DNA of 32,310 bases, from positions 1 through 32,310 of the forward strand of contig NZ_RAWK01000089.1 in NCBI RefSeq assembly GCF_003612165.1, read 5' to 3'. A program made the translations under genes and the position numbers. Within the stretch, counting starts at the first letter, position 1. Each line of letters begins with the position of its first letter. This document shows positions 465 through 12,580 of the stretch, piece after piece. Under the pieces are notes generated by a model. The model worked only from the letters and a program-made list of their open reading frames with translations, was not told the origin of the DNA and searched no databases. Origin of the DNA: Corallococcus aberystwythensis (GTDB lineage: Bacteria > Myxococcota > Myxococcia > Myxococcales > Myxococcaceae).

Positions 465-3149
465 TCACCGGGTCCGGAGGAACGCCTTGACGCTCGGGGC
501 CTGGACCTTCTGGGACTCGATGCACAACCGGATGGACTCCAGGGCGCGGGCCAGCGCGCGCGGACCGCCTTCGATTTTGTCCACGCGCGGCGTGAGGAAC
601 GTTTCCACCTGTGCAAGGTTGATTTCGTCGCAGAGGTTCCCTGTCTGGCCAATCAGCCGGCCCAGCTCATCCGAGCGCAGCCGCTGCGTCAGCGCATCGA
701 AGTGCGTCTGGTAGAAGTTCCACGCCAGCGACTGCGACTCCGGCGACATCAGCGCCATCGTGAGGATGACCTGCGAGTCCCGCACGTCGAAGTCCGGTGA
801 CACCACGAGCCCCAGCGCCCGCCACAGCAGGTCCGAGTTCCGGAAGTACGCCAGGGACATCAGCAGCCTGGAACGCTCGGTGCGGTCCTGCTCCTTCTTC
901 GCGGCCTCCAGCAACGCGTCGAACAGCGCCGCGTCACCATGCGTCGCGGCCCGGGGCAGCGCGCTGCTGAACGCCTCCGGGTCCACCGACTTCCGGTCCG
1001 CCAGCCACGCACGCACCAGGGGCAGCGCTTCCTTCACCAGCTGCGGGTCGTCGCCAATGCCACCCGCCAACCGGAGGAACATCGACCGTGACTCCTTCAC
1101 GGAGTCGTCCTCGCCCGGCTTGGGCACCCACCCCATGGCCCGAGCGCGTGCGGAGTAGAGGGATGCCACCCACGCGCGGAAGCGCTTGCGCTCCTCCGGC
1201 GTGAGTTGATCCACGCGCACTCCTTCGAGCAGCGAGGCGCCACTCGCCACCACGAGGCGGTTCGTCGATTTCGCGGAGGCCGGCACCGCCTTCAGCGCCT
1301 CACCCAGCGGCAGGTCTCCGCGAGACACCGCCGCGTCCACGTCCGCCCAGAGCGACACCTGCTCCGCCGGGGTGAAGGCAGCCACCGGGGTCGCGAGCAG
1401 CTTCGTCAGCTGTTCGCGCGTGTACCCGCCGCGGTAGTACCCCGTACCGCCCGCGTTGAGCAGCACCCACGCCGGGCACTGCTTCGTGGGCAGCGCCACC
1501 TCCGCAGTGGGGCCCTGCAACATCGAGCACACCCGCGATGATTGCGTGCCCGTCCCCACGCGCAGACACACGGGTACCTGCCATTCCTGCTTTGCGTCCG
1601 CCTTGGACCCGACGGGCAGGTAGCGTTCCTGAGACAGCTTCACCGTCGGAGCACCGCCCGCCGGGCACGACAGCTGTGCGGTGATTCGCGGCGCGCCCCG
1701 CTGCGTGATGAACCCGCCGAAGGATTGCGCGACCTCCGGGCCCGCCGCCTGGGACAGGTCCGCGAGGAAGTCCTCCATCGTCGCGACCTTCCAGGCGTGC
1801 TTGCGGACATAGCCCCGGAGCATGTCGCGGAAGCGCTCAGGCCCCAGCCAGGCCTCGTACATGGCGATGACGGAGGAACCCTTGTCATACGTCGTCCCGT
1901 TGTCGAACGCCCCCACGATGTCGTCATTGCTGGCCACCGGCTTGCGCACGGGCAGTGCTGCCTCCAGCGCATCCGATTCCAGCGCGGAACGCGTCGCGGA
2001 CATGGCGCGCATCTGCTGGTAGTCCCAGGACGGCTCCAGCCGATCCACCGTCTGCCGGTCCAGCCACGCGGTGAACGACTCGTTCAGCCAGATGTCGTTC
2101 CACCACGAGCAGGTGACGACGTCTCCGAACCAGTAGTGGCCCAGCTCATGGTTGGCGATGACCGCGTAGGACTTGCGGCGGACCAGCGTCTCTTCACCGG
2201 GCGGGATGAGCGTGAGCGGCTGCCCGAGCGCGACGATGCCCGGGTGTTCCATGGTGCCCCAGTACCGGGGCACGACCGCCACATCCAGCTTCTCGTACGG
2301 ATAGGGCTGGTCGAAGAAGTCCTCCAGTCCCTTCACGATGCGCGGCGTGATGCTGGCGGCGTAGCGCGTCTCCGCGCCCCGGCCCTTGGGGACGATGAAG
2401 CGCAGCGGCACGTTCGTGCGGCCCACGGTGCCGGCCTCCACCACGTCGAACGGCCCCACCATGAAGGCCACGAGGTAGCTGGGCATCGGCTTGCTCTCCG
2501 CGAAGGTGACGCGCTCCAGCCCGTCCGCCAGCGGCTCGCGAGACACGACGGGATGGTTGGCGAGCGCCACCTGGCCAGCCTTCACGGTGAAGCGCAGGCG
2601 CCACGGCACCTTGAAGGTCGGCTCGTCGAAGCAAGGGAAGGCGCGGCGCGCGTCGATGGGTTCGAAGAACGTGTAGAGGTAGGACTCCCCGCCCTCCGCC
2701 ACGCCGTAGAGACCCTGGCTGCGCTCACGGTCCACCTTGCCGGTGAAGTCCAGCAGGAGCTGGGCCTTGCCGGCAGGCAGTTCCTCCGGCAGCAGCAATC
2801 CCAGACGTCCCTCGTTCGCGGTGACGGGCTTCGCGTCGAACGTGCGACCGCCCACGGTGACGCGCGCCCGCGTCACGTCCAGGTCCTGCGCGTGCAGCCA
2901 CACCTGGCGCACCGGCTCACGGACCTCCACGTCGATGGTGACGCTGCCCGGGTACGTGTCCTCCGTGGGCACGAGCTTCAGGTCCAGCGCGTAGTGCACG
3001 GGCCGCACGGTGTCCGGCAGCCGCAGCGCGGGCGGCAGTGCCTCCGGCCACGAGACAGTGGCCGGTAGGGACGCGGGCGGTGCGGCGTCCGGCGCGTGGG
3101 CACAGCGGACGGTCAACACCACCAGGATGAAGAGTGGGAGCAGTCGCAT
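465..3149 (-). CDS. M1 family zinc aminopeptidase (aminopeptidase N-like), secreted
   Basis: 894 aa with signal peptide MRLLPLFILVVLTVRCAHA. GAMEN-like motif (WGTMEHPG). HEXXH-X18-E motif (HELGHYWFGD...WLNESFTAW). Long ERAP1-like C-terminal helical domain. Confidence 0.9.
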   Translation of the reverse strand: MRLLPLFILVVLTVRCAHAPDAAPPASLPATVSWPEALPPALRLPDTVRPVHYALDLKLVPTEDTYPGSVTIDVEVREPVRQVWLHAQDLDVTRARVTVGGRTFDAKPVTANEGRLGLLLPEELPAGKAQLLLDFTGKVDRERSQGLYGVAEGGESYLYTFFEPIDARRAFPCFDEPTFKVPWRLRFTVKAGQVALANHPVVSREPLADGLERVTFAESKPMPSYLVAFMVGPFDVVEAGTVGRTNVPLRFIVPKGRGAETRYAASITPRIVKGLEDFFDQPYPYEKLDVAVVPRYWGTMEHPGIVALGQPLTLIPPGEETLVRRKSYAVIANHELGHYWFGDVVTCSWWNDIWLNESFTAWLDRQTVDRLEPSWDYQQMRAMSATRSALESDALEAALPVRKPVASNDDIVGAFDNGTTYDKGSSVIAMYEAWLGPERFRDMLRGYVRKHAWKVATMEDFLADLSQAAGPEVAQSFGGFITQRGAPRITAQLSCPAGGAPTVKLSQERYLPVGSKADAKQEWQVPVCLRVGTGTQSSRVCSMLQGPTAEVALPTKQCPAWVLLNAGGTGYYRGGYTREQLTKLLATPVAAFTPAEQVSLWADVDAAVSRGDLPLGEALKAVPASAKSTNRLVVASGASLLEGVRVDQLTPEERKRFRAWVASLYSARARAMGWVPKPGEDDSVKESRSMFLRLAGGIGDDPQLVKEALPLVRAWLADRKSVDPEAFSSALPRAATHGDAALFDALLEAAKKEQDRTERSRLLMSLAYFRNSDLLWRALGLVVSPDFDVRDSQVILTMALMSPESQSLAWNFYQTHFDALTQRLRSDELGRLIGQTGNLCDEINLAQVETFLTPRVDKIEGGPRALARALESIRLCIESQKVQAPSVKAFLRTR

Positions 3150-3297
3150 GGGGCCGGAGCCTAGACCAAGCGCGGGTTGCGCAAGGGTGTGGTGACTCCG
3201 GCGCGTCGGTCATCCTTGCTGGCGGTGCGTGCCGCCATACTCCAGGGCTGACCCGCTTGCCCTCGTGAAGCTCCGGCTGAATCGAACGGACGTGACC

Positions 3298-4215
3298 ATG
3301 CGTCTTTGCGCCTGCCTCGCAGTTCTCCTCCTTGTGTCGGCCTGCGCTACGTCAGGTCCGGCCCCAAGAGAGCGCACGTCCCGGAACCCGCGGATCGCCA
3401 ACCTCCAGAGAGCAGCGGAGCTGCCGTGGAGTGAAGAGGGACGCTGTGTCATCCAAGAGGCGTCCCAGCCCTGGTCCGTGGTGGCGGAGCGCTGCTTTCG
3501 GGCCCTCGACCACGACAAGGTCCGGTTTCACGACCCGACGGGACGCTGCACGGTCGCCTCCGCAGGCGCGGCGACCCTGGGCCTTGGAGTCTGCGTCCTG
3601 GCGGCCCCTGAGATCGTCGTTGGTGCCGTCATCATCATTGGCGTGGTGGTGGTCGCGGTGGCCATCAAGGAAGAGCTGGATGCGTATGAGCTACGCCACC
3701 TCTATCCCGAGGAAGCAGGAACAGCGCGAGGAACGAAGGCGACTCCCCGGGAGGCCACAGCGAACCGGAAGCCCAAGCTGGAGCCGAAACCCGCAGGGCA
3801 GGACTGGCAGCCCCCCATGCCGCCCGGTCCCCAGGACCGGACACGCCCCGCCAGGTGCGAACCCATCCCGGTAAAACACCGGGGCGGTGATGACGCGCAC
3901 AACAAGTGCGCCGACACGTTTCCACCCAACCGCTATCCCGGCAAGGACGTGCTGGTAGACGGCAAGCACTTCGATGCACTGCAAATCAAGCTGCCCGTGC
4001 TGTGGGAGATCAAGACCGACCGGTTTGATACGTACAGTGACTTTCTGCAGGAGCAGGTAGTCGCCGATCAGGTGGAGGAGATGAGGGAAGAGCGGGACAT
4101 CGCGGCTTCATGTGGATATGGCTTCGTGGTGGGAGTGAGCACCGAAAAGCACAAAAAAGCGCTGGAGTCCCAGGCGCGCGAACTCAAGGTCGTAGTCACA
4201 GGGTGCACTCGATGA
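3298..4215 (+). CDS. lipoprotein with C-terminal PD-(D/E)xK nuclease-like toxin domain (candidate polymorphic toxin)
   Basis: ATG at 3298 gives MRLCACLAVLLLVSAC with a lipobox (VSAC). A 30-aa hydrophobic segment (LGLGVCVLAAPEIVVGAVIIIGVVVVAVAI) follows. The C-terminus carries D...E-x-K signatures (HFDALQ ... LWEIKTD) typical of restriction-endonuclease-fold toxins. The C-terminal half is visibly GC-poorer than surrounding genes. The ORF track begins at 3229, an upstream in-frame M. Confidence 0.55.
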   Translation: MRLCACLAVLLLVSACATSGPAPRERTSRNPRIANLQRAAELPWSEEGRCVIQEASQPWSVVAERCFRALDHDKVRFHDPTGRCTVASAGAATLGLGVCVLAAPEIVVGAVIIIGVVVVAVAIKEELDAYELRHLYPEEAGTARGTKATPREATANRKPKLEPKPAGQDWQPPMPPGPQDRTRPARCEPIPVKHRGGDDAHNKCADTFPPNRYPGKDVLVDGKHFDALQIKLPVLWEIKTDRFDTYSDFLQEQVVADQVEEMREERDIAASCGYGFVVGVSTEKHKKALESQARELKVVVTGCTR

Positions 4216-4973
4216 CCCAGCGAAGGACCCTCAACATCATCGTCTACGCGCCCGCGCTGATGGACAGCGATGGCCGCGCCCTCGCCATTGTCGAAGGGAT
4301 GGAGCGGGCACTTCCCGGCTTACACCTCGCGTGGAAGGTCTCCAAGGAGGGGAAAACCATCGCATTGCCACAGCGTGATGCATGGCTCATGGAAGGAACC
4401 CGGAAGGGGAAGTTCCCTTTGGTGTGCAATGGAGACGAGGGGCATCCCATCACGATCTATGGGCTTCAGACGCCCGCGCGGCAGGCGCCGGGTGGCCGAC
4501 AACTGCTGGACGTCCACGCAGGGCTACCACTCGACGCAACTGTGATTGGGACTGCAGCGGATGTGCTGGAAGGTGTGGCAGCGGGCGCAGGTGCATTCTG
4601 GGGGTATGCGACACCGCTCCCGGCGGGAGTGGAAATCGCACGCCAAACGGTTGATCCCGTGCACAAACCGGGGGTTCCGCCGAGAGGGCTGCCTGCGCTA
4701 AAACTCCCCGAGAAGATCCGCTCGCCGGAGATTCCTTATTGCCTCGGCTGGCTGAATTACTGGTCTGCCGCTGCTGCACAAGCCGTGGGGTTCCCAGATC
4801 CCGCTCGCGACGCGGACCTGCTCTCACGCTCGCGGCGCACCGCGACGGGCGGGTGGGTCGTGCAACTCACGGACGCACCTCTCGACCTGGACATCCCTGA
4901 GCACCTGGACGCGCTGAAACAAGCCTACGAACGCTTCCCGGTGATTGGCGGACGGCCCGCACCTTCGCCCTGA
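4212..4973 (+). CDS. candidate cognate immunity protein (hypothetical)
   Basis: ATG at 4212 overlaps the toxin stop codon as ATGA (translational coupling). It is in frame with the longer track ORF 4110..4973. No recognisable domain. Lower GC3 than neighbours. It follows the toxin gene on the same strand. Confidence 0.45.
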   Translation: MTQRRTLNIIVYAPALMDSDGRALAIVEGMERALPGLHLAWKVSKEGKTIALPQRDAWLMEGTRKGKFPLVCNGDEGHPITIYGLQTPARQAPGGRQLLDVHAGLPLDATVIGTAADVLEGVAAGAGAFWGYATPLPAGVEIARQTVDPVHKPGVPPRGLPALKLPEKIRSPEIPYCLGWLNYWSAAAAQAVGFPDPARDADLLSRSRRTATGGWVVQLTDAPLDLDIPEHLDALKQAYERFPVIGGRPAPSP

Positions 4974-5019
4974 TGCCTTCCAGATGCACGCGGCGGTGGA
5001 CTGGGCCAGGATGCGCCCC

Positions 5020-5841
5020 ATGTCCAACCTCCAAGGCAAGACCCTCTTCATCACCGGCGCCAGCCGCGGCATCGGCAAGGCCATCGCGCTGCGCGCGGCC
5101 CGCGACGGCGCCAACATCGTCATCGCGGCCAAGACGACGGACCCGCACCCCAAGCTGCCCGGCACCATCTACACGGCGGCGAAGGAGATTGAAGAGGCCG
5201 GTGGCAAGGCCCTCCCCTGCGTGGTGGACATCCGCGACGAGGCGCAGATCCACGCCGCCGTCGCCAAGGCCGTGGAGACCTTCGGCGGCATCGACATCCT
5301 GGTGAACAACGCCAGCGCCATCAGCCTCACCGGCACCCTGGAGACGCCGCTCAAGCGCTTCGACCTCATGCACGGCATCAACACGCGCGGCACCTTCGCG
5401 TGCTCGCAGGCGTGCATCCCGTACCTCAAGAAGTCCTCCAACCCGCACATCCTCAACAACTCGCCGCCGCTCAACATGGAGCCGCGCTGGTTCGGCCCGC
5501 ATGTGGCCTACACCATCGCGAAGTACGGCATGAGCCTGTGCGCGCTGGGCATGGCGGAGGAGCTCAAGGACGACGGCATCGCCGTCAACACGCTGTGGCC
5601 CCGCACCGTCATCGCCACCGCCGCCGTGCAGAACCTGCTGGGCGGCGACGACACCATCAAGGGCAGCCGCACGCCGGAGATCATGGCGGACGCCGCCTAC
5701 GCCATCCTCACCAAGCCCAGCCGCTCCTTCACCGGCAACTTCTGCATCGACGATGAAGTGCTGCGCGCCGCCGGCATCACCAACCTGGACAAGTACCAGT
5801 CCGTCCCCGGCGCGGAATTGCTGCCCGACTTCTTCCTCTAG
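5020..5841 (+). CDS. SDR family NAD(P)-dependent oxidoreductase (HSDL2-like)
   Basis: TLFITGASRGIGKAIA glycine-rich Rossmann motif, NNAS motif and YTIAKYG (YxxxK) catalytic motif. ATG at 5020; the in-frame upstream extension from 4945 overlaps the previous gene. Confidence 0.85.
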   Translation: MSNLQGKTLFITGASRGIGKAIALRAARDGANIVIAAKTTDPHPKLPGTIYTAAKEIEEAGGKALPCVVDIRDEAQIHAAVAKAVETFGGIDILVNNASAISLTGTLETPLKRFDLMHGINTRGTFACSQACIPYLKKSSNPHILNNSPPLNMEPRWFGPHVAYTIAKYGMSLCALGMAEELKDDGIAVNTLWPRTVIATAAVQNLLGGDDTIKGSRTPEIMADAAYAILTKPSRSFTGNFCIDDEVLRAAGITNLDKYQSVPGAELLPDFFL

Positions 5842-8576: not shown

Positions 8577-10202
8577 CTACTTGTTGATGCGCACCATCGC
8601 GACGTCGTAGTGGCGCTCCGTCACGTAGCCGTTCGCGGCCTTGCCGGGGCGGTACATGTTCCCGGTCTTGTCATCCACGTAGAAGCGGTTGTTCGGGTTC
8701 GTGTCCTTGCCCGTGCTGGCGTTCTTCGTGCCCGGGTCGTGGAACGTGTAGTAGGTGCGGCCCTTGTCGTCGACGCCGCGGCCCGTGATGGTCACGAAGT
8801 GGTCCGTGAGGCCGTCCGCGTTGTAGCTCGCGTCCTTGTGGCTCACGCCCACGACCACCGGCTTGCCGGCCTCCAGCTGCTTGTCGATGTAGCTGCGGCC
8901 CTCGGCGGCCTTCTTCGAGTCCACGTTGAGCGCGCCGACGCCGTTCTCGCTCTTGCCCACCTGGATGCGGCGGTCGGGGCCCAGCACCGTCGCGCCGGAG
9001 TCACGCGCCATCGCCGTCGCGGCCTTGAAGCACGCCGTGTCGCTCGCGGTGTAGCCGTGGCCGTTCTCGAACTGGCTGTAGTACGGCACCTTCACGTGCA
9101 CCGCCGGCTTGTCCTTGGACGGGGCCACCTGCTCCGTGTTCGCGGGGGCCGCCTCCGTGGTGGGCTTGGAGGTGTTCGCACCCTGCGTCGTGGGCTTTCC
9201 GTCCGTGCGGCCCGGCTTGGAGTCGCCGTTCACGGACGGGGGAACCACGCCCGTGTTGGTGTTGGCCGGCTTCGTCGTCGTGCCGCCGCCCGCCTGCTCC
9301 TTCTTGAGCATGGCGAGCGCGTCCTTCGACTCCGCCTTGAAGCGGTTGGCCACGCCCTTCTGCACGTCCTTGGAGTTGCCGGAGAAGTGCACCAGGGTGC
9401 CGCTGGCGTTGGTGCGGCCGCGCTCGGCGTAGATGTCCTTGATGAGCTGCTCGTCGCTCACCTTCGCGGGGTCGCGGCCGGCCAGCGCCTTCTTGAAGAT
9501 GTCGTCCGCCCCACCCGGGCCGTGCTGCACGGAGGTGGACCAGGCCACGTCACGCAGCGCCGCGGAGCGCTTGTCCAGGTCGATGCCCGTCGCCTTCTTG
9601 ATGTTGGCGGCGCCCGGGTCGTAGTGCGTGGCCTTGATGTAGTCGTGCTGCGCCTTGTCGAAGCCCTTCGGGTCCTTCGCCGCCAGGTCCTTCCACGCGG
9701 CGGAGAACTGCGGGGAGCCCGGCTTGCTGCCCGACAGCGCCTTGTGGAACTCGGGGTTCGTCTTCTTCAGCGAGTTGACGAAGGACTGCGCGGAGCCGTT
9801 CGCGGACGCGAACTGGTAGGAGCCGTACGACACGCCGCCCTTGTCGCCCTTGCCCGTGGACACCGTGCCGGGGCCGCGCGCCTCGTACTTGCGGCTCAGC
9901 CCGCCCAGCTCCCCGCCGGCCGTGCTGGTGGAGCCTCCCTCCGTGGAGGGCGTCGTCTTCTGCGTGCCGCCGGTGGACTGCGTGAAGGTGTCGCCCGACG
10001 TCTTCGTCCCCGAGCTCGACTTGTTGCCCGTGCCCTTCGCTTCGAACCCGTCCTGCTGCACCTTGAGCGACTGGCCGGCGAGGATCTTGTTCGGATCCTT
10101 GATGTTGTTGGCCTTGGCCAGCTCAGCGACGGACGTGTTGTAGCGCTTCGCGAGCCCGGTGAGCGTGTCGCCCGATTTGATGCGGATGTTGGAGACGGTC
10201 AT
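8577..10202 (-). CDS. LysM domain protein with lysozyme-like middle domain and C-terminal C39-like (papain-fold) cysteine peptidase domain; putative peptidoglycan hydrolase
   Basis: N-terminal LysM ([41 protein letters not shown]). Gly/Ser/Thr-rich linkers. Middle domain with GVSYGSYQF, reminiscent of phage-tail lysozyme-like domains (tentative). C-terminal [28 protein letters not shown] ... TDHFVTITG fits the Peptidase_C39-like Cys/His pattern. Strong GAGGGGG SD. No N-terminal signal peptide. Confidence 0.8.
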
Positions 10203-11428: not shown

Positions 11429-11740
11429 CCCAGGGCCCGAGGGCGCCAGGGTCGTCCTCGCGGCGATAGCGCTTGATGCTTCCTGGAGCGCTACCTCCAC
11501 GGCAAGCGCACGCGGGTGAAGCCGTGTGGGCAGGGCTCAGAGACATACCGACCAACAGTGAATCATTTGTCACCCGGGGTGAAATAGCACCCGGATTGAC
11601 GCAGTGATCACTTTTTTCGGAAGTTCACCTTGTCGCGGACACCGTGATGTCCATGCCGCGACATGTCTCGACGCCAGGATGCGATGCATTCCGTGCACCG
11701 TGCCTGGTCGTGAGGCCGTCTTCTTCCCGTGGAGCTTCCC

Positions 11741-12580
11741 ATGACTGGTTGGAATGCCCTGGCGCGGCACGCCTGGATGTCTGTTGTTTCCTTGAGCCTC
11801 GTCCTCACGGCATGCGGTCCCGAAATGGAAGAGGGGCCGTCCGCGCCTCTCGACGAGCCGGTGCTCGAGACGTCCCGGAGTGCACTGACCGAGCCGGGTC
11901 AGATCCTCACAGGAGGTGACCGATACACGCACCCCTACTACGCCTCGGGCGGCCGGTGCGTGTTCGAGACGACGTTAGGGACGCTGCCGGACACGTACCT
12001 CTCACTTTTCGGACCGAACAGCTCGACGAACCTGCTCGCCGTGGATGACGACAGCGGCGTGGGGCTTGCCTCACGCATCGAGGCGTACCTGCAGCCGGGC
12101 ACCTATTACGCGACGGTGCGAGGCTTCAACTCCGCCCAGACAGGGAACTACCAGATCGACATGAACTGCTACGGGGGCATCCGCTACCAGTCCCACGTGG
12201 CGAGCTACGGGTGGACGGGCTGGACTCTGGATGGGCAGCAGTCGGGCACCACCGGGCAGAACCGCCGAATGGAGGCAGTGCAGATGTACCTGCTCAGCCT
12301 GCCAGGCGTGTCTGTCCGGTATTCGGTGCACCTGGGCGATGTGGGCTGGACGGGCGAGTACTACGACGGTCAGGCCGCAGGAACGACGGGGCAGCAGCGC
12401 CAGATGGAGGCAATCAAGATCTGGTTGACGGGGGCGGTGCCCTCGGGCTGCCACGTCAATTATGACGCCCACCTCGCGGGTTCGGGCTGGCAGGGCACGC
12501 GTTCGGATGGTCAGGTGTCGGGCACGACGGGCCAGAATCGTCGCATCGAGGCGTTGCGCATCTGGCTCAGCGGTTGCTGA
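11741..12580 (+). CDS. lipoprotein with PPC-like domain and three ChW (clostridial hydrophobic W) repeats
   Basis: ATG at 11741 (MTGWNALARHAWMSVVSLSLVLTAC lipobox); the track ORF uses GTG at 11729. Pre-peptidase C-terminal-like region (DDDSGVG...PGTYYATVRGF). Three repeats of about 46 aa matching the ChW pattern Y.xHV...GW.gW..dGq..GTTGq.rR.EA..i.L. Confidence 0.8.
   Translation: MTGWNALARHAWMSVVSLSLVLTACGPEMEEGPSAPLDEPVLETSRSALTEPGQILTGGDRYTHPYYASGGRCVFETTLGTLPDTYLSLFGPNSSTNLLAVDDDSGVGLASRIEAYLQPGTYYATVRGFNSAQTGNYQIDMNCYGGIRYQSHVASYGWTGWTLDGQQSGTTGQNRRMEAVQMYLLSLPGVSVRYSVHLGDVGWTGEYYDGQAAGTTGQQRQMEAIKIWLTGAVPSGCHVNYDAHLAGSGWQGTRSDGQVSGTTGQNRRIEALRIWLSGC

Follow-up and report, generated by a model that had tools for sequence, protein, structure and literature searches.

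A contig of the myxobacterium Corallococcus aberystwythensis (NZ_RAWK01000089.1, assembly GCF_003612165.1) raises the question of what two overlapping genes do that match protein families of unknown function. The stretch analysed, called the window below, is 32,310 nucleotides long (positions 1 to 32,310 of the contig), and the two genes, named gene 1 and gene 2 here, occupy positions 3298-4973. The original prediction, made from the letters of the sequence, was that gene 1 encodes a lipoprotein toxin with a nuclease-like C-terminus and that gene 2 is its overlapping immunity gene. This reading is supported by family membership, the predicted folds of both proteins, a conserved catalytic motif, strict gene pairing, allele co-variation and the reuse of the toxin domain on other carriers. 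The pair very probably encodes an exported lipoprotein nuclease toxin and its cognate immunity protein. Such an assignment is unsurprising in a myxobacterium; the route by which the toxin would reach its target is the less certain part of the answer.

Both open reading frames (ORFs) are real genes, as both match Pfam families. The C-terminus of gene 1 belongs to DUF6310 (PF19829; E 6.7e-58, 194.6 bits against a cut-off of 27), and gene 2 belongs to DUF5953 (PF19378; E 3.1e-118, 394.1 bits against a cut-off of 25). Thus gene 2, which had been described as having no recognisable domain, is a member of a recognisable though uncharacterised family. Protein searches at E<=0.001 gave about 1100 members of DUF6310 and about 1600 of DUF5953, and no papers naming either family were found in the literature searched. 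The homologues of gene 1 number 1132, are mostly about 305 aa long and come from Corallococcus, Myxococcus and related genera. The lipobox (LVSAC), the long hydrophobic segment and the Pro/Lys-rich linker that had been reported for gene 1 can all be read directly from its sequence. The ATGA overlap was also confirmed at 4212-4215, where the start of gene 2 overlaps the stop of gene 1, suggesting that the two genes are translationally coupled.

Predicted folds, catalytic motif and gene pairing

Structure prediction gave DUF6310 a restriction-endonuclease (PD-(D/E)xK) core with TseT as the closest match, and gave gene 2, encoded beside the toxin gene, the fold of Imm52 (TsiT-like). The toxin domain of gene 1 and the product of gene 2 have as their top matches the partner chains of a single solved toxin-immunity complex; on these models, it is very unlikely that two neighbours would independently match one such complex by chance. 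TseT-TsiT (PA3907-PA3908), the pair that both predicted folds match, belongs to the H2 type VI secretion system (T6SS) of Pseudomonas aeruginosa, and its immunity gene likewise lies directly downstream. Some DUF5953 clusters are also named 'Immunity protein 52 domain-containing protein' in UniRef.

The D...WEIK motif claimed for gene 1 was located at F225-D226-A227 and W236-E237-I238-K239. It follows the D...ExK catalytic pattern, in the form FD[GA]...E[AI]K. An alignment of 50 diverse family members shows no variation at D226 or K239, and at least 90% conservation at E237. Tox-REase-5 has the signature 'FDG...EAK', and Imm52 is its listed immunity family (Zhang et al. 2012, PMC3482391). The FDA/WEIK motif of gene 1 resembles this signature at the sequence level. 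By analogy with these toxins, the C-terminal ~120 residues of gene 1 are predicted to form a metal-dependent PD-(D/E)xK DNase of the TseT / Tox-REase-5 type, and nuclease activity and toxicity would be expected of this domain. The gene 2 product has no signal peptide and may protect the producer by binding the cognate nuclease.

Co-conservation of the two genes, on which the original prediction depended, was found in every locus with room to look: DUF5953 lies directly downstream of DUF6310 in 13/13 loci, and in most of them the two genes overlap by 4 bp. Four of the 13 pairs stand in a tandem array in C. coralloides. Across these 13 pairs, the divergence of the nuclease domain correlates with that of the immunity protein (Mantel r 0.57, p 0.003). 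No correlation with the immunity protein was seen for the hydrophobic segment (r 0.09) or the linker (r 0.12), and the distances of the N-terminal and C-terminal domains of the toxin are uncorrelated with each other (r 0.05). This indicates that the nuclease and the immunity gene evolve as one cassette, and the pattern of divergence suggests that they probably recombine as one unit.

These results bear on the alternative that gene 1 is a non-toxic envelope nuclease, for example one used in the turnover or uptake of extracellular DNA, with a partner of unrelated function. Such a role would agree with the annotation of both families as DUFs only and with the fact that the toxicity of the pair is predicted. 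It is extremely improbable, however, considering that each of the two proteins on its own matches a solved toxin-immunity complex and that a housekeeping nuclease would not be expected to pair so strictly, to co-vary with its partner allele by allele, to stand in multi-copy arrays or to be present in some genomes and absent from others.

Carriers, hydrophobic helix and cysteines of the toxin domain

An exhaustive search of 1.84 billion representative proteins with the C-terminal domain of gene 1 returned 204 clusters at E<=0.001. DUF6310 lies at the extreme C-terminus in all proteins long enough to judge, which range from about 300 to 1130 aa, and its N-terminal partners include eCIS_core (DUF4157), DUF4280, a transglutaminase-like domain (Transglut_core), CBM_2 and several unrelated lipoprotein N-termini. 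The eCIS_core domain is a marker of contractile-injection-system cargo, and DUF4280 is a PAAR-like T6SS domain. The C-terminal position of DUF6310 behind such varied delivery modules is a signature of polymorphic toxins. PD-(D/E)xK CdiA-CT and other polymorphic-toxin cassettes likewise carry a C-terminal nuclease across trafficking modules, with an adjacent immunity gene (Zhang et al. 2012). In a search of limited sensitivity (62 hits), all sequences recovered with the N-terminal module of the lipoprotein (residues 18-135) were DUF6310 proteins or truncated fragments, and no alternative C-terminal toxin domains were found within the lipoprotein carrier family. The proposed polymorphism was thus borne out for DUF6310, which occurs on several carrier types, and not for the lipoprotein N-terminus, which was seen with no other toxin domain. 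From these sequences, the lipoprotein family appears to be allelic, not modular.

N-terminal-only ORFs resembling gene 1, of 120-200 aa, are numerous in other genomes (P0391-P0409). In C. exercitus SDU142, a fragment corresponding to gene 1 residues 86-154 lies a few kb past the M1 peptidase (locus L005, 481-724, minus strand). These fragments may derive from toxin N-termini that were displaced or have decayed, or may be genes called too short.

Among 13 paralogues, the most conserved region is residues 97-135, with a mean distance of 16% versus 30-37% elsewhere, and the most variable segment is the linker (residues 136-186; 37%). A hydrophobic helix, defined by a Kyte-Doolittle window mean of at least 2.0 within the 130 residues upstream of the nuclease, was found in 34/60 representatives versus 0/97 control windows of the same proteins (Fisher p 2e-18). 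The helix-bearing carriers are of the eCIS_core, DUF4280, transglutaminase-like and lipoprotein types; the helix is therefore not specific to lipoproteins. Linked to the toxin in this way, it probably serves to insert into the recipient inner membrane or to cross it. Transmembrane helices aid toxin entry in Tse6 and other prePAAR T6SS effectors. The trait shared with those effectors is a hydrophobic helix linked to a cytoplasm-acting toxin, whatever the carrier; gene 1 differs in that the helix lies directly upstream of the toxin instead of at the N-terminus. The carrier-independent link between helix and nuclease provides a lead on how cytoplasm-acting toxins pass the recipient inner membrane.

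Four cysteines are conserved in the nuclease domain (gene 1 residues 187, 204, 272 and 303; alignment A1), a feature in which the domain differs from TseT-TsiT. C204 and C303 are jointly lost in five members, two of them confirmed DUF4280 (T6SS-type) proteins and the other three similar sequences. From this joint loss, a C204-C303 disulfide is suggested for the exported versions, and the pattern of conservation suggests that the nuclease domain folds outside the producer cytoplasm.

The strongly hydrophobic segment between the exported N-terminus and the nuclease would also suit an intracellular toxin-antitoxin or abortive-infection module. In such a module, the segment would act as a stop-transfer anchor, the nuclease would lie in the producer cytoplasm, and gene 2 would restrain it until a stress or phage signal arrives. 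A cytoplasmic immunity protein is consistent with this arrangement, and a preprint argues that Tox-REase-5/Imm52 pairs are also defensive toxin-antitoxin systems (10.1101/835710). However, the pair has no PADLOC match, the domain is reused on secretion-linked carriers (DUF4280 and eCIS_core), and the conserved cysteines with the joint loss of C204 and C303 suggest a disulfide-bonded domain that folds outside the cytoplasm. Past the helix come acidic residues (KEELDAYE) in place of the positive-inside pattern of a stop-transfer anchor, and a lipoprotein signal would serve no purpose in such a module, which makes this explanation highly unlikely.

Export, delivery and the comparison with SitA/SitI

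For the preferred reading, an exported toxin with a cognate immunity protein, the lipobox is informative. It ends in [SA][AG]C, with Ala at +2, in 13/13 paralogues. In Myxococcus xanthus, Lys at +2 is a retention signal for the inner membrane (PMC3222651). The lipobox and the conserved Ala, instead of Lys, at +2 indicate that the gene 1 lipoprotein is not retained in the inner membrane, and by this sequence rule its product would be located in the outer membrane.

In the proposed mechanism, gene 1 would give a prolipoprotein that, with cleavage and lipidation at Cys17, leaves the cytoplasm; D226, E237 and K239 would be the catalytic residues of the exported nuclease. The gene 2 product would remain in the producer cytoplasm and neutralise the cognate nuclease by binding it. 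The toxin would be passed to neighbouring myxobacteria, most likely as an outer-membrane lipoprotein cargo of TraAB exchange, like SitA; the nuclease would then act in the recipient cytoplasm, and the conserved helix and linker would probably help it through the recipient inner membrane. Cells without the matching immunity allele would be killed, and the locus would serve as a kin-discrimination or competition marker. For the TraAB step itself, a SitA-like outer-membrane exchange taken by analogy, we see about an even chance.

SitA/SitI systems, with six families defined from SitA1/2 to SitA7, are TraAB-delivered lipoprotein toxins and have many alleles per genome at variable locations (PMC8546572). 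Gene 1 is likewise a lipobox lipoprotein with a C-terminal predicted nuclease and an immunity gene in the operon, and likewise has numerous alleles in each genome; their contexts are variable or mobile, and the genera are the same. The escort domains of SitA are roughly 375 aa long, and SitA4, SitA6 and SitA7 are non-modular (PMC8546572). The gene 1 family is also non-modular, consisting of one toxin family with varying alleles; its pre-toxin region is about 170 aa, in contrast to the much longer escort domains, although SitA6 is also small. The pair may be regarded as a candidate SitA-type toxin, likened to SitA by its features only. The gene 1 family could be SitA7, a non-modular family whose description gives no more than a predicted DNase (PMC8546572); the comparison with it is by this description only.

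The NCBIfam models of SitA6 and SitI6 do recognise a pair of their own (TIGR02269, TIGR02264): in Myxococcus virescens (locus L089, 17925-19250), it lies ~7 kb from a DUF6310-DUF5953 pair. This SitA6 is only about 200 aa long, indicating that small SitA lipoproteins exist. The named sources of homologues are all Cystobacterineae genera except two assemblies labelled Comamonas. In 'Comamonas sp. KCTC 72670 / JC664' (locus L016, BNCN01000020.1; protein P0447), a Myxococcus-like SDR (short-chain dehydrogenase/reductase; 88% identical) was found together with DUF6310 proteins; the Comamonas label looks wrong, or the assemblies look contaminated.

A toxin-immunity pair could also be delivered without TraAB, either by outer-membrane vesicles or other export, with unrelated prey or competitors as targets, or by an undescribed contact-dependent route. 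The short escort region and the lack of an NCBIfam SitA match are in keeping with this, and the window holds nothing that ties the pair to traAB. In addition, the nuclease cassette is shared by T6SS-type and eCIS-type carriers, which argues that the route is carrier-specific and not set by the toxin. On the other side, the non-Lys +2 lipobox, the many alleles per genome, the immunity co-variation and the Cystobacterineae sources fit the description of SitA, and a nuclease that acts in the cytoplasm must have a way into Gram-negative cells, which vesicles alone do not give. Delivery without TraAB is considered rather unlikely.

Several results weigh against a SitA-like DNase toxin with an Imm52-like partner. 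In the Pfam scan (E<=10), only one of 50 DUF6310 members matched Tox-REase-5 (PF15648), at E 0.16, the gene 1 protein of the window itself had no PF15648 profile match, and 0/39 DUF5953 members matched Imm52 (PF15579) at E<=10. The match of gene 2 to 4rho is a weak local motif match only (E 0.16-0.75), searches of PDB sequences by phmmer and by profile yielded nothing above noise for either protein, and NCBIfam gave no meaningful match for the pair. The relationship to Tox-REase-5/Imm52 therefore appears, from the models, to be one of fold and motif, at about 10% identity. The PD-(D/E)xK toxin assignment of the original prediction thus stood with regard to the nuclease fold and the conserved motif, and hidden Markov model (HMM) searches gave no link. 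The co-variation test comprises 13 pairs, four of them from one array; it was restricted to these because a metagenome scan with gene 1 gave three loci. As to delivery, no NCBIfam SitA/SitI model matches gene 1 or gene 2, though SitA6/SitI6 models exist, and no tra, T6SS-core or extracellular contractile injection system (eCIS) genes were found within the window. Finally, a hydrophobic segment of 33 residues is unusual for a lipoprotein bound to the outer membrane and could instead be an inner-membrane anchor that leaves the nuclease on the cytoplasmic side.

A broader proposal, possible but doubtful, is that helix, linker and DUF6310 nuclease form a self-contained cassette with its own inner-membrane entry device, which has been plugged into several unrelated delivery systems (lipoproteins, PAAR-like T6SS, eCIS and transglutaminase-type carriers). 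The lipoprotein version would then be an unrecognised or unannotated kin-discrimination family of outer-membrane exchange that needs no large escort domain.

Among known systems, the closest in mechanism is TseT-TsiT and the closest in biology is SitA/SitI. Identity to TseT-TsiT is only about 10-13%, with no significant HMM match to PF15648/PF15579, and the toxins are also built differently: TseT is a PAAR/chaperone-loaded T6SS effector, whereas gene 1 is a lipoprotein with an internal hydrophobic helix. The pair belongs to Pfam DUF6310/DUF5953; to Tox-REase-5/Imm52 it is related in structure, without membership at the profile level. It would be a new, unnamed member of a familiar toxin-immunity class, or an already known one if it is SitA7. 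The assignment provides a testable function (DNase toxin and cognate immunity) for two Pfam families of unknown function, and would bring lipoprotein toxins of social myxobacteria into the structural class of TseT/TsiT (Tox-REase-5/Imm52). If the toxin is delivered by outer-membrane exchange, a compact toxin family would be added to the kin-recognition 'barcodes'.

Gene model, insertion and the rest of the window

The features of the pair are listed in Table 1. The deposited model of gene 1 in C. aberystwythensis (P0001) is 245 aa long and starts at an internal GTG (residue 61), and consequently has neither the signal peptide nor the lipobox; the part of the window affected is 3298-3480. The Corallococcus sp. 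BB11-1 protein P0112 is truncated in the same way. By sequence comparison, a start at 3298 is supported by about 100 homologues with lengths of roughly 305 aa, and the truncated public model, which hides the export signal, is hereby corrected. A promoter is presumed to lie in 3184-3297; no sigma-70 promoter consensus and no intrinsic terminator consensus were found in the window at 3100-5100.

Table 1. Positions of the two genes and their predicted features in the window
Feature	Position	Strand	Description	Basis
Gene 1	3298..4215	+	305-aa putative prolipoprotein toxin, DUF6310 family; ATG 3298, TGA 4213-4215	ORF
Type II (lipoprotein) signal peptide	3298..3348	+	lipobox LVSA|C17 (L13-V-S-A-C17), +2 = Ala	sequence
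N-terminal Cys-containing domain, residues 18-96	3349..3585	+	kept across the family; function not assigned	
Hydrophobic, transmembrane-like segment, residues 97-129	3586..3684	+	33 residues	hydropathy
Pro/Lys/Glu-rich linker, residues about 130-186	3685..3855	+		sequence
Predicted PD-(D/E)xK nuclease toxin domain, C-terminal, residues 187-305	3856..4212	+	DUF6310 core	
Predicted catalytic motif	3973..4014	+	D226 3973-3975; E237-I-K239 4006-4014	conservation
Gene 2	4212..4973	+	253-aa predicted cytoplasmic immunity protein, DUF5953, Imm52-like fold; ATG 4212, TGA 4971-4973	
Upstream non-coding part of the insert	3184..3297	+	region presumed to contain the promoter; M1 peptidase gene is divergent	

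The locus is an accessory, inserted one. Nucleotide homology to C. exercitus ends at ~3183 and restarts at 4968, defining an insert at 3184-4967 that consists of both genes and about 115 nt upstream. The GC content at third codon positions is 0.75 in gene 1 and 0.69 in gene 2, against 0.81-0.98 in the other long ORFs of the window. As had been claimed, the pair is flanked by genes for an aminopeptidase N / M1-type peptidase on one side and an SDR oxidoreductase on the other. The slot between these flanks lacks the pair in 7/7 related Corallococcus loci from six species, in which the M1 peptidase, SDR and LysR flanks are syntenic and the slot is occupied by other genes. The closest homologues (about 75% identical) are located in unrelated contexts; a transposase adjoins the pair in one of these loci (L002) and lies a few kb away in two others (L003 and L088). 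At least six paralogues of gene 1 in C. aberystwythensis are among the top hits listed. No copies of the pair were found on plasmids or phages.

The slot between M1 peptidase and SDR is variable in its own right (L004-L007, L009, L011, L012). In C. exercitus and C. interemptor, it holds a secreted protein of ~300 aa with three repeats of ~90 aa (TYTTPTVNGYQVGT...ARRFCQDQGH), and in C. praedator, C. sicarius and C. terminator a lipoprotein of ~800 aa with PKD-like repeats; C. coralloides KYC2213 has both the repeat protein and the PKD-like lipoprotein. In three genomes, DUF2381 and one or two Ser/Thr kinases stand beside DUF6310-DUF5953 pairs (L002, 12877-17300; L003, 3732-6711; L088, 4673-8662), with a small helix-turn-helix protein in L002 and L003. 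The DUF2381/kinase module and the pair may form a shared mobile or variable island.

The remaining content of the window consists of ordinary chromosomal genes, a few of which deserve mention. A 541-aa protein encoded at 8577-10202 (minus strand) has an N-terminal LysM domain and a C-terminal domain similar to T6SS VgrG3 (peptidoglycan-hydrolase type), with a Thr/Pro/Lys-rich low-complexity region followed by a further C-terminal domain; it is possibly a secreted cell-wall-degrading (predatory) enzyme. The 771-aa ORF at 15301-17616 (minus strand) matches MVP_shoulder (E 3e-45) as well as Vault, Vault_2, Vault_3 and Vault_4, which are domains of the eukaryotic Major Vault Protein, and a bacterial vault-protein homologue is unusual. 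The protein encoded at 11714-12580 (plus strand) contains three ChW (clostridial hydrophobic W) repeats, which are known mostly from Firmicutes.

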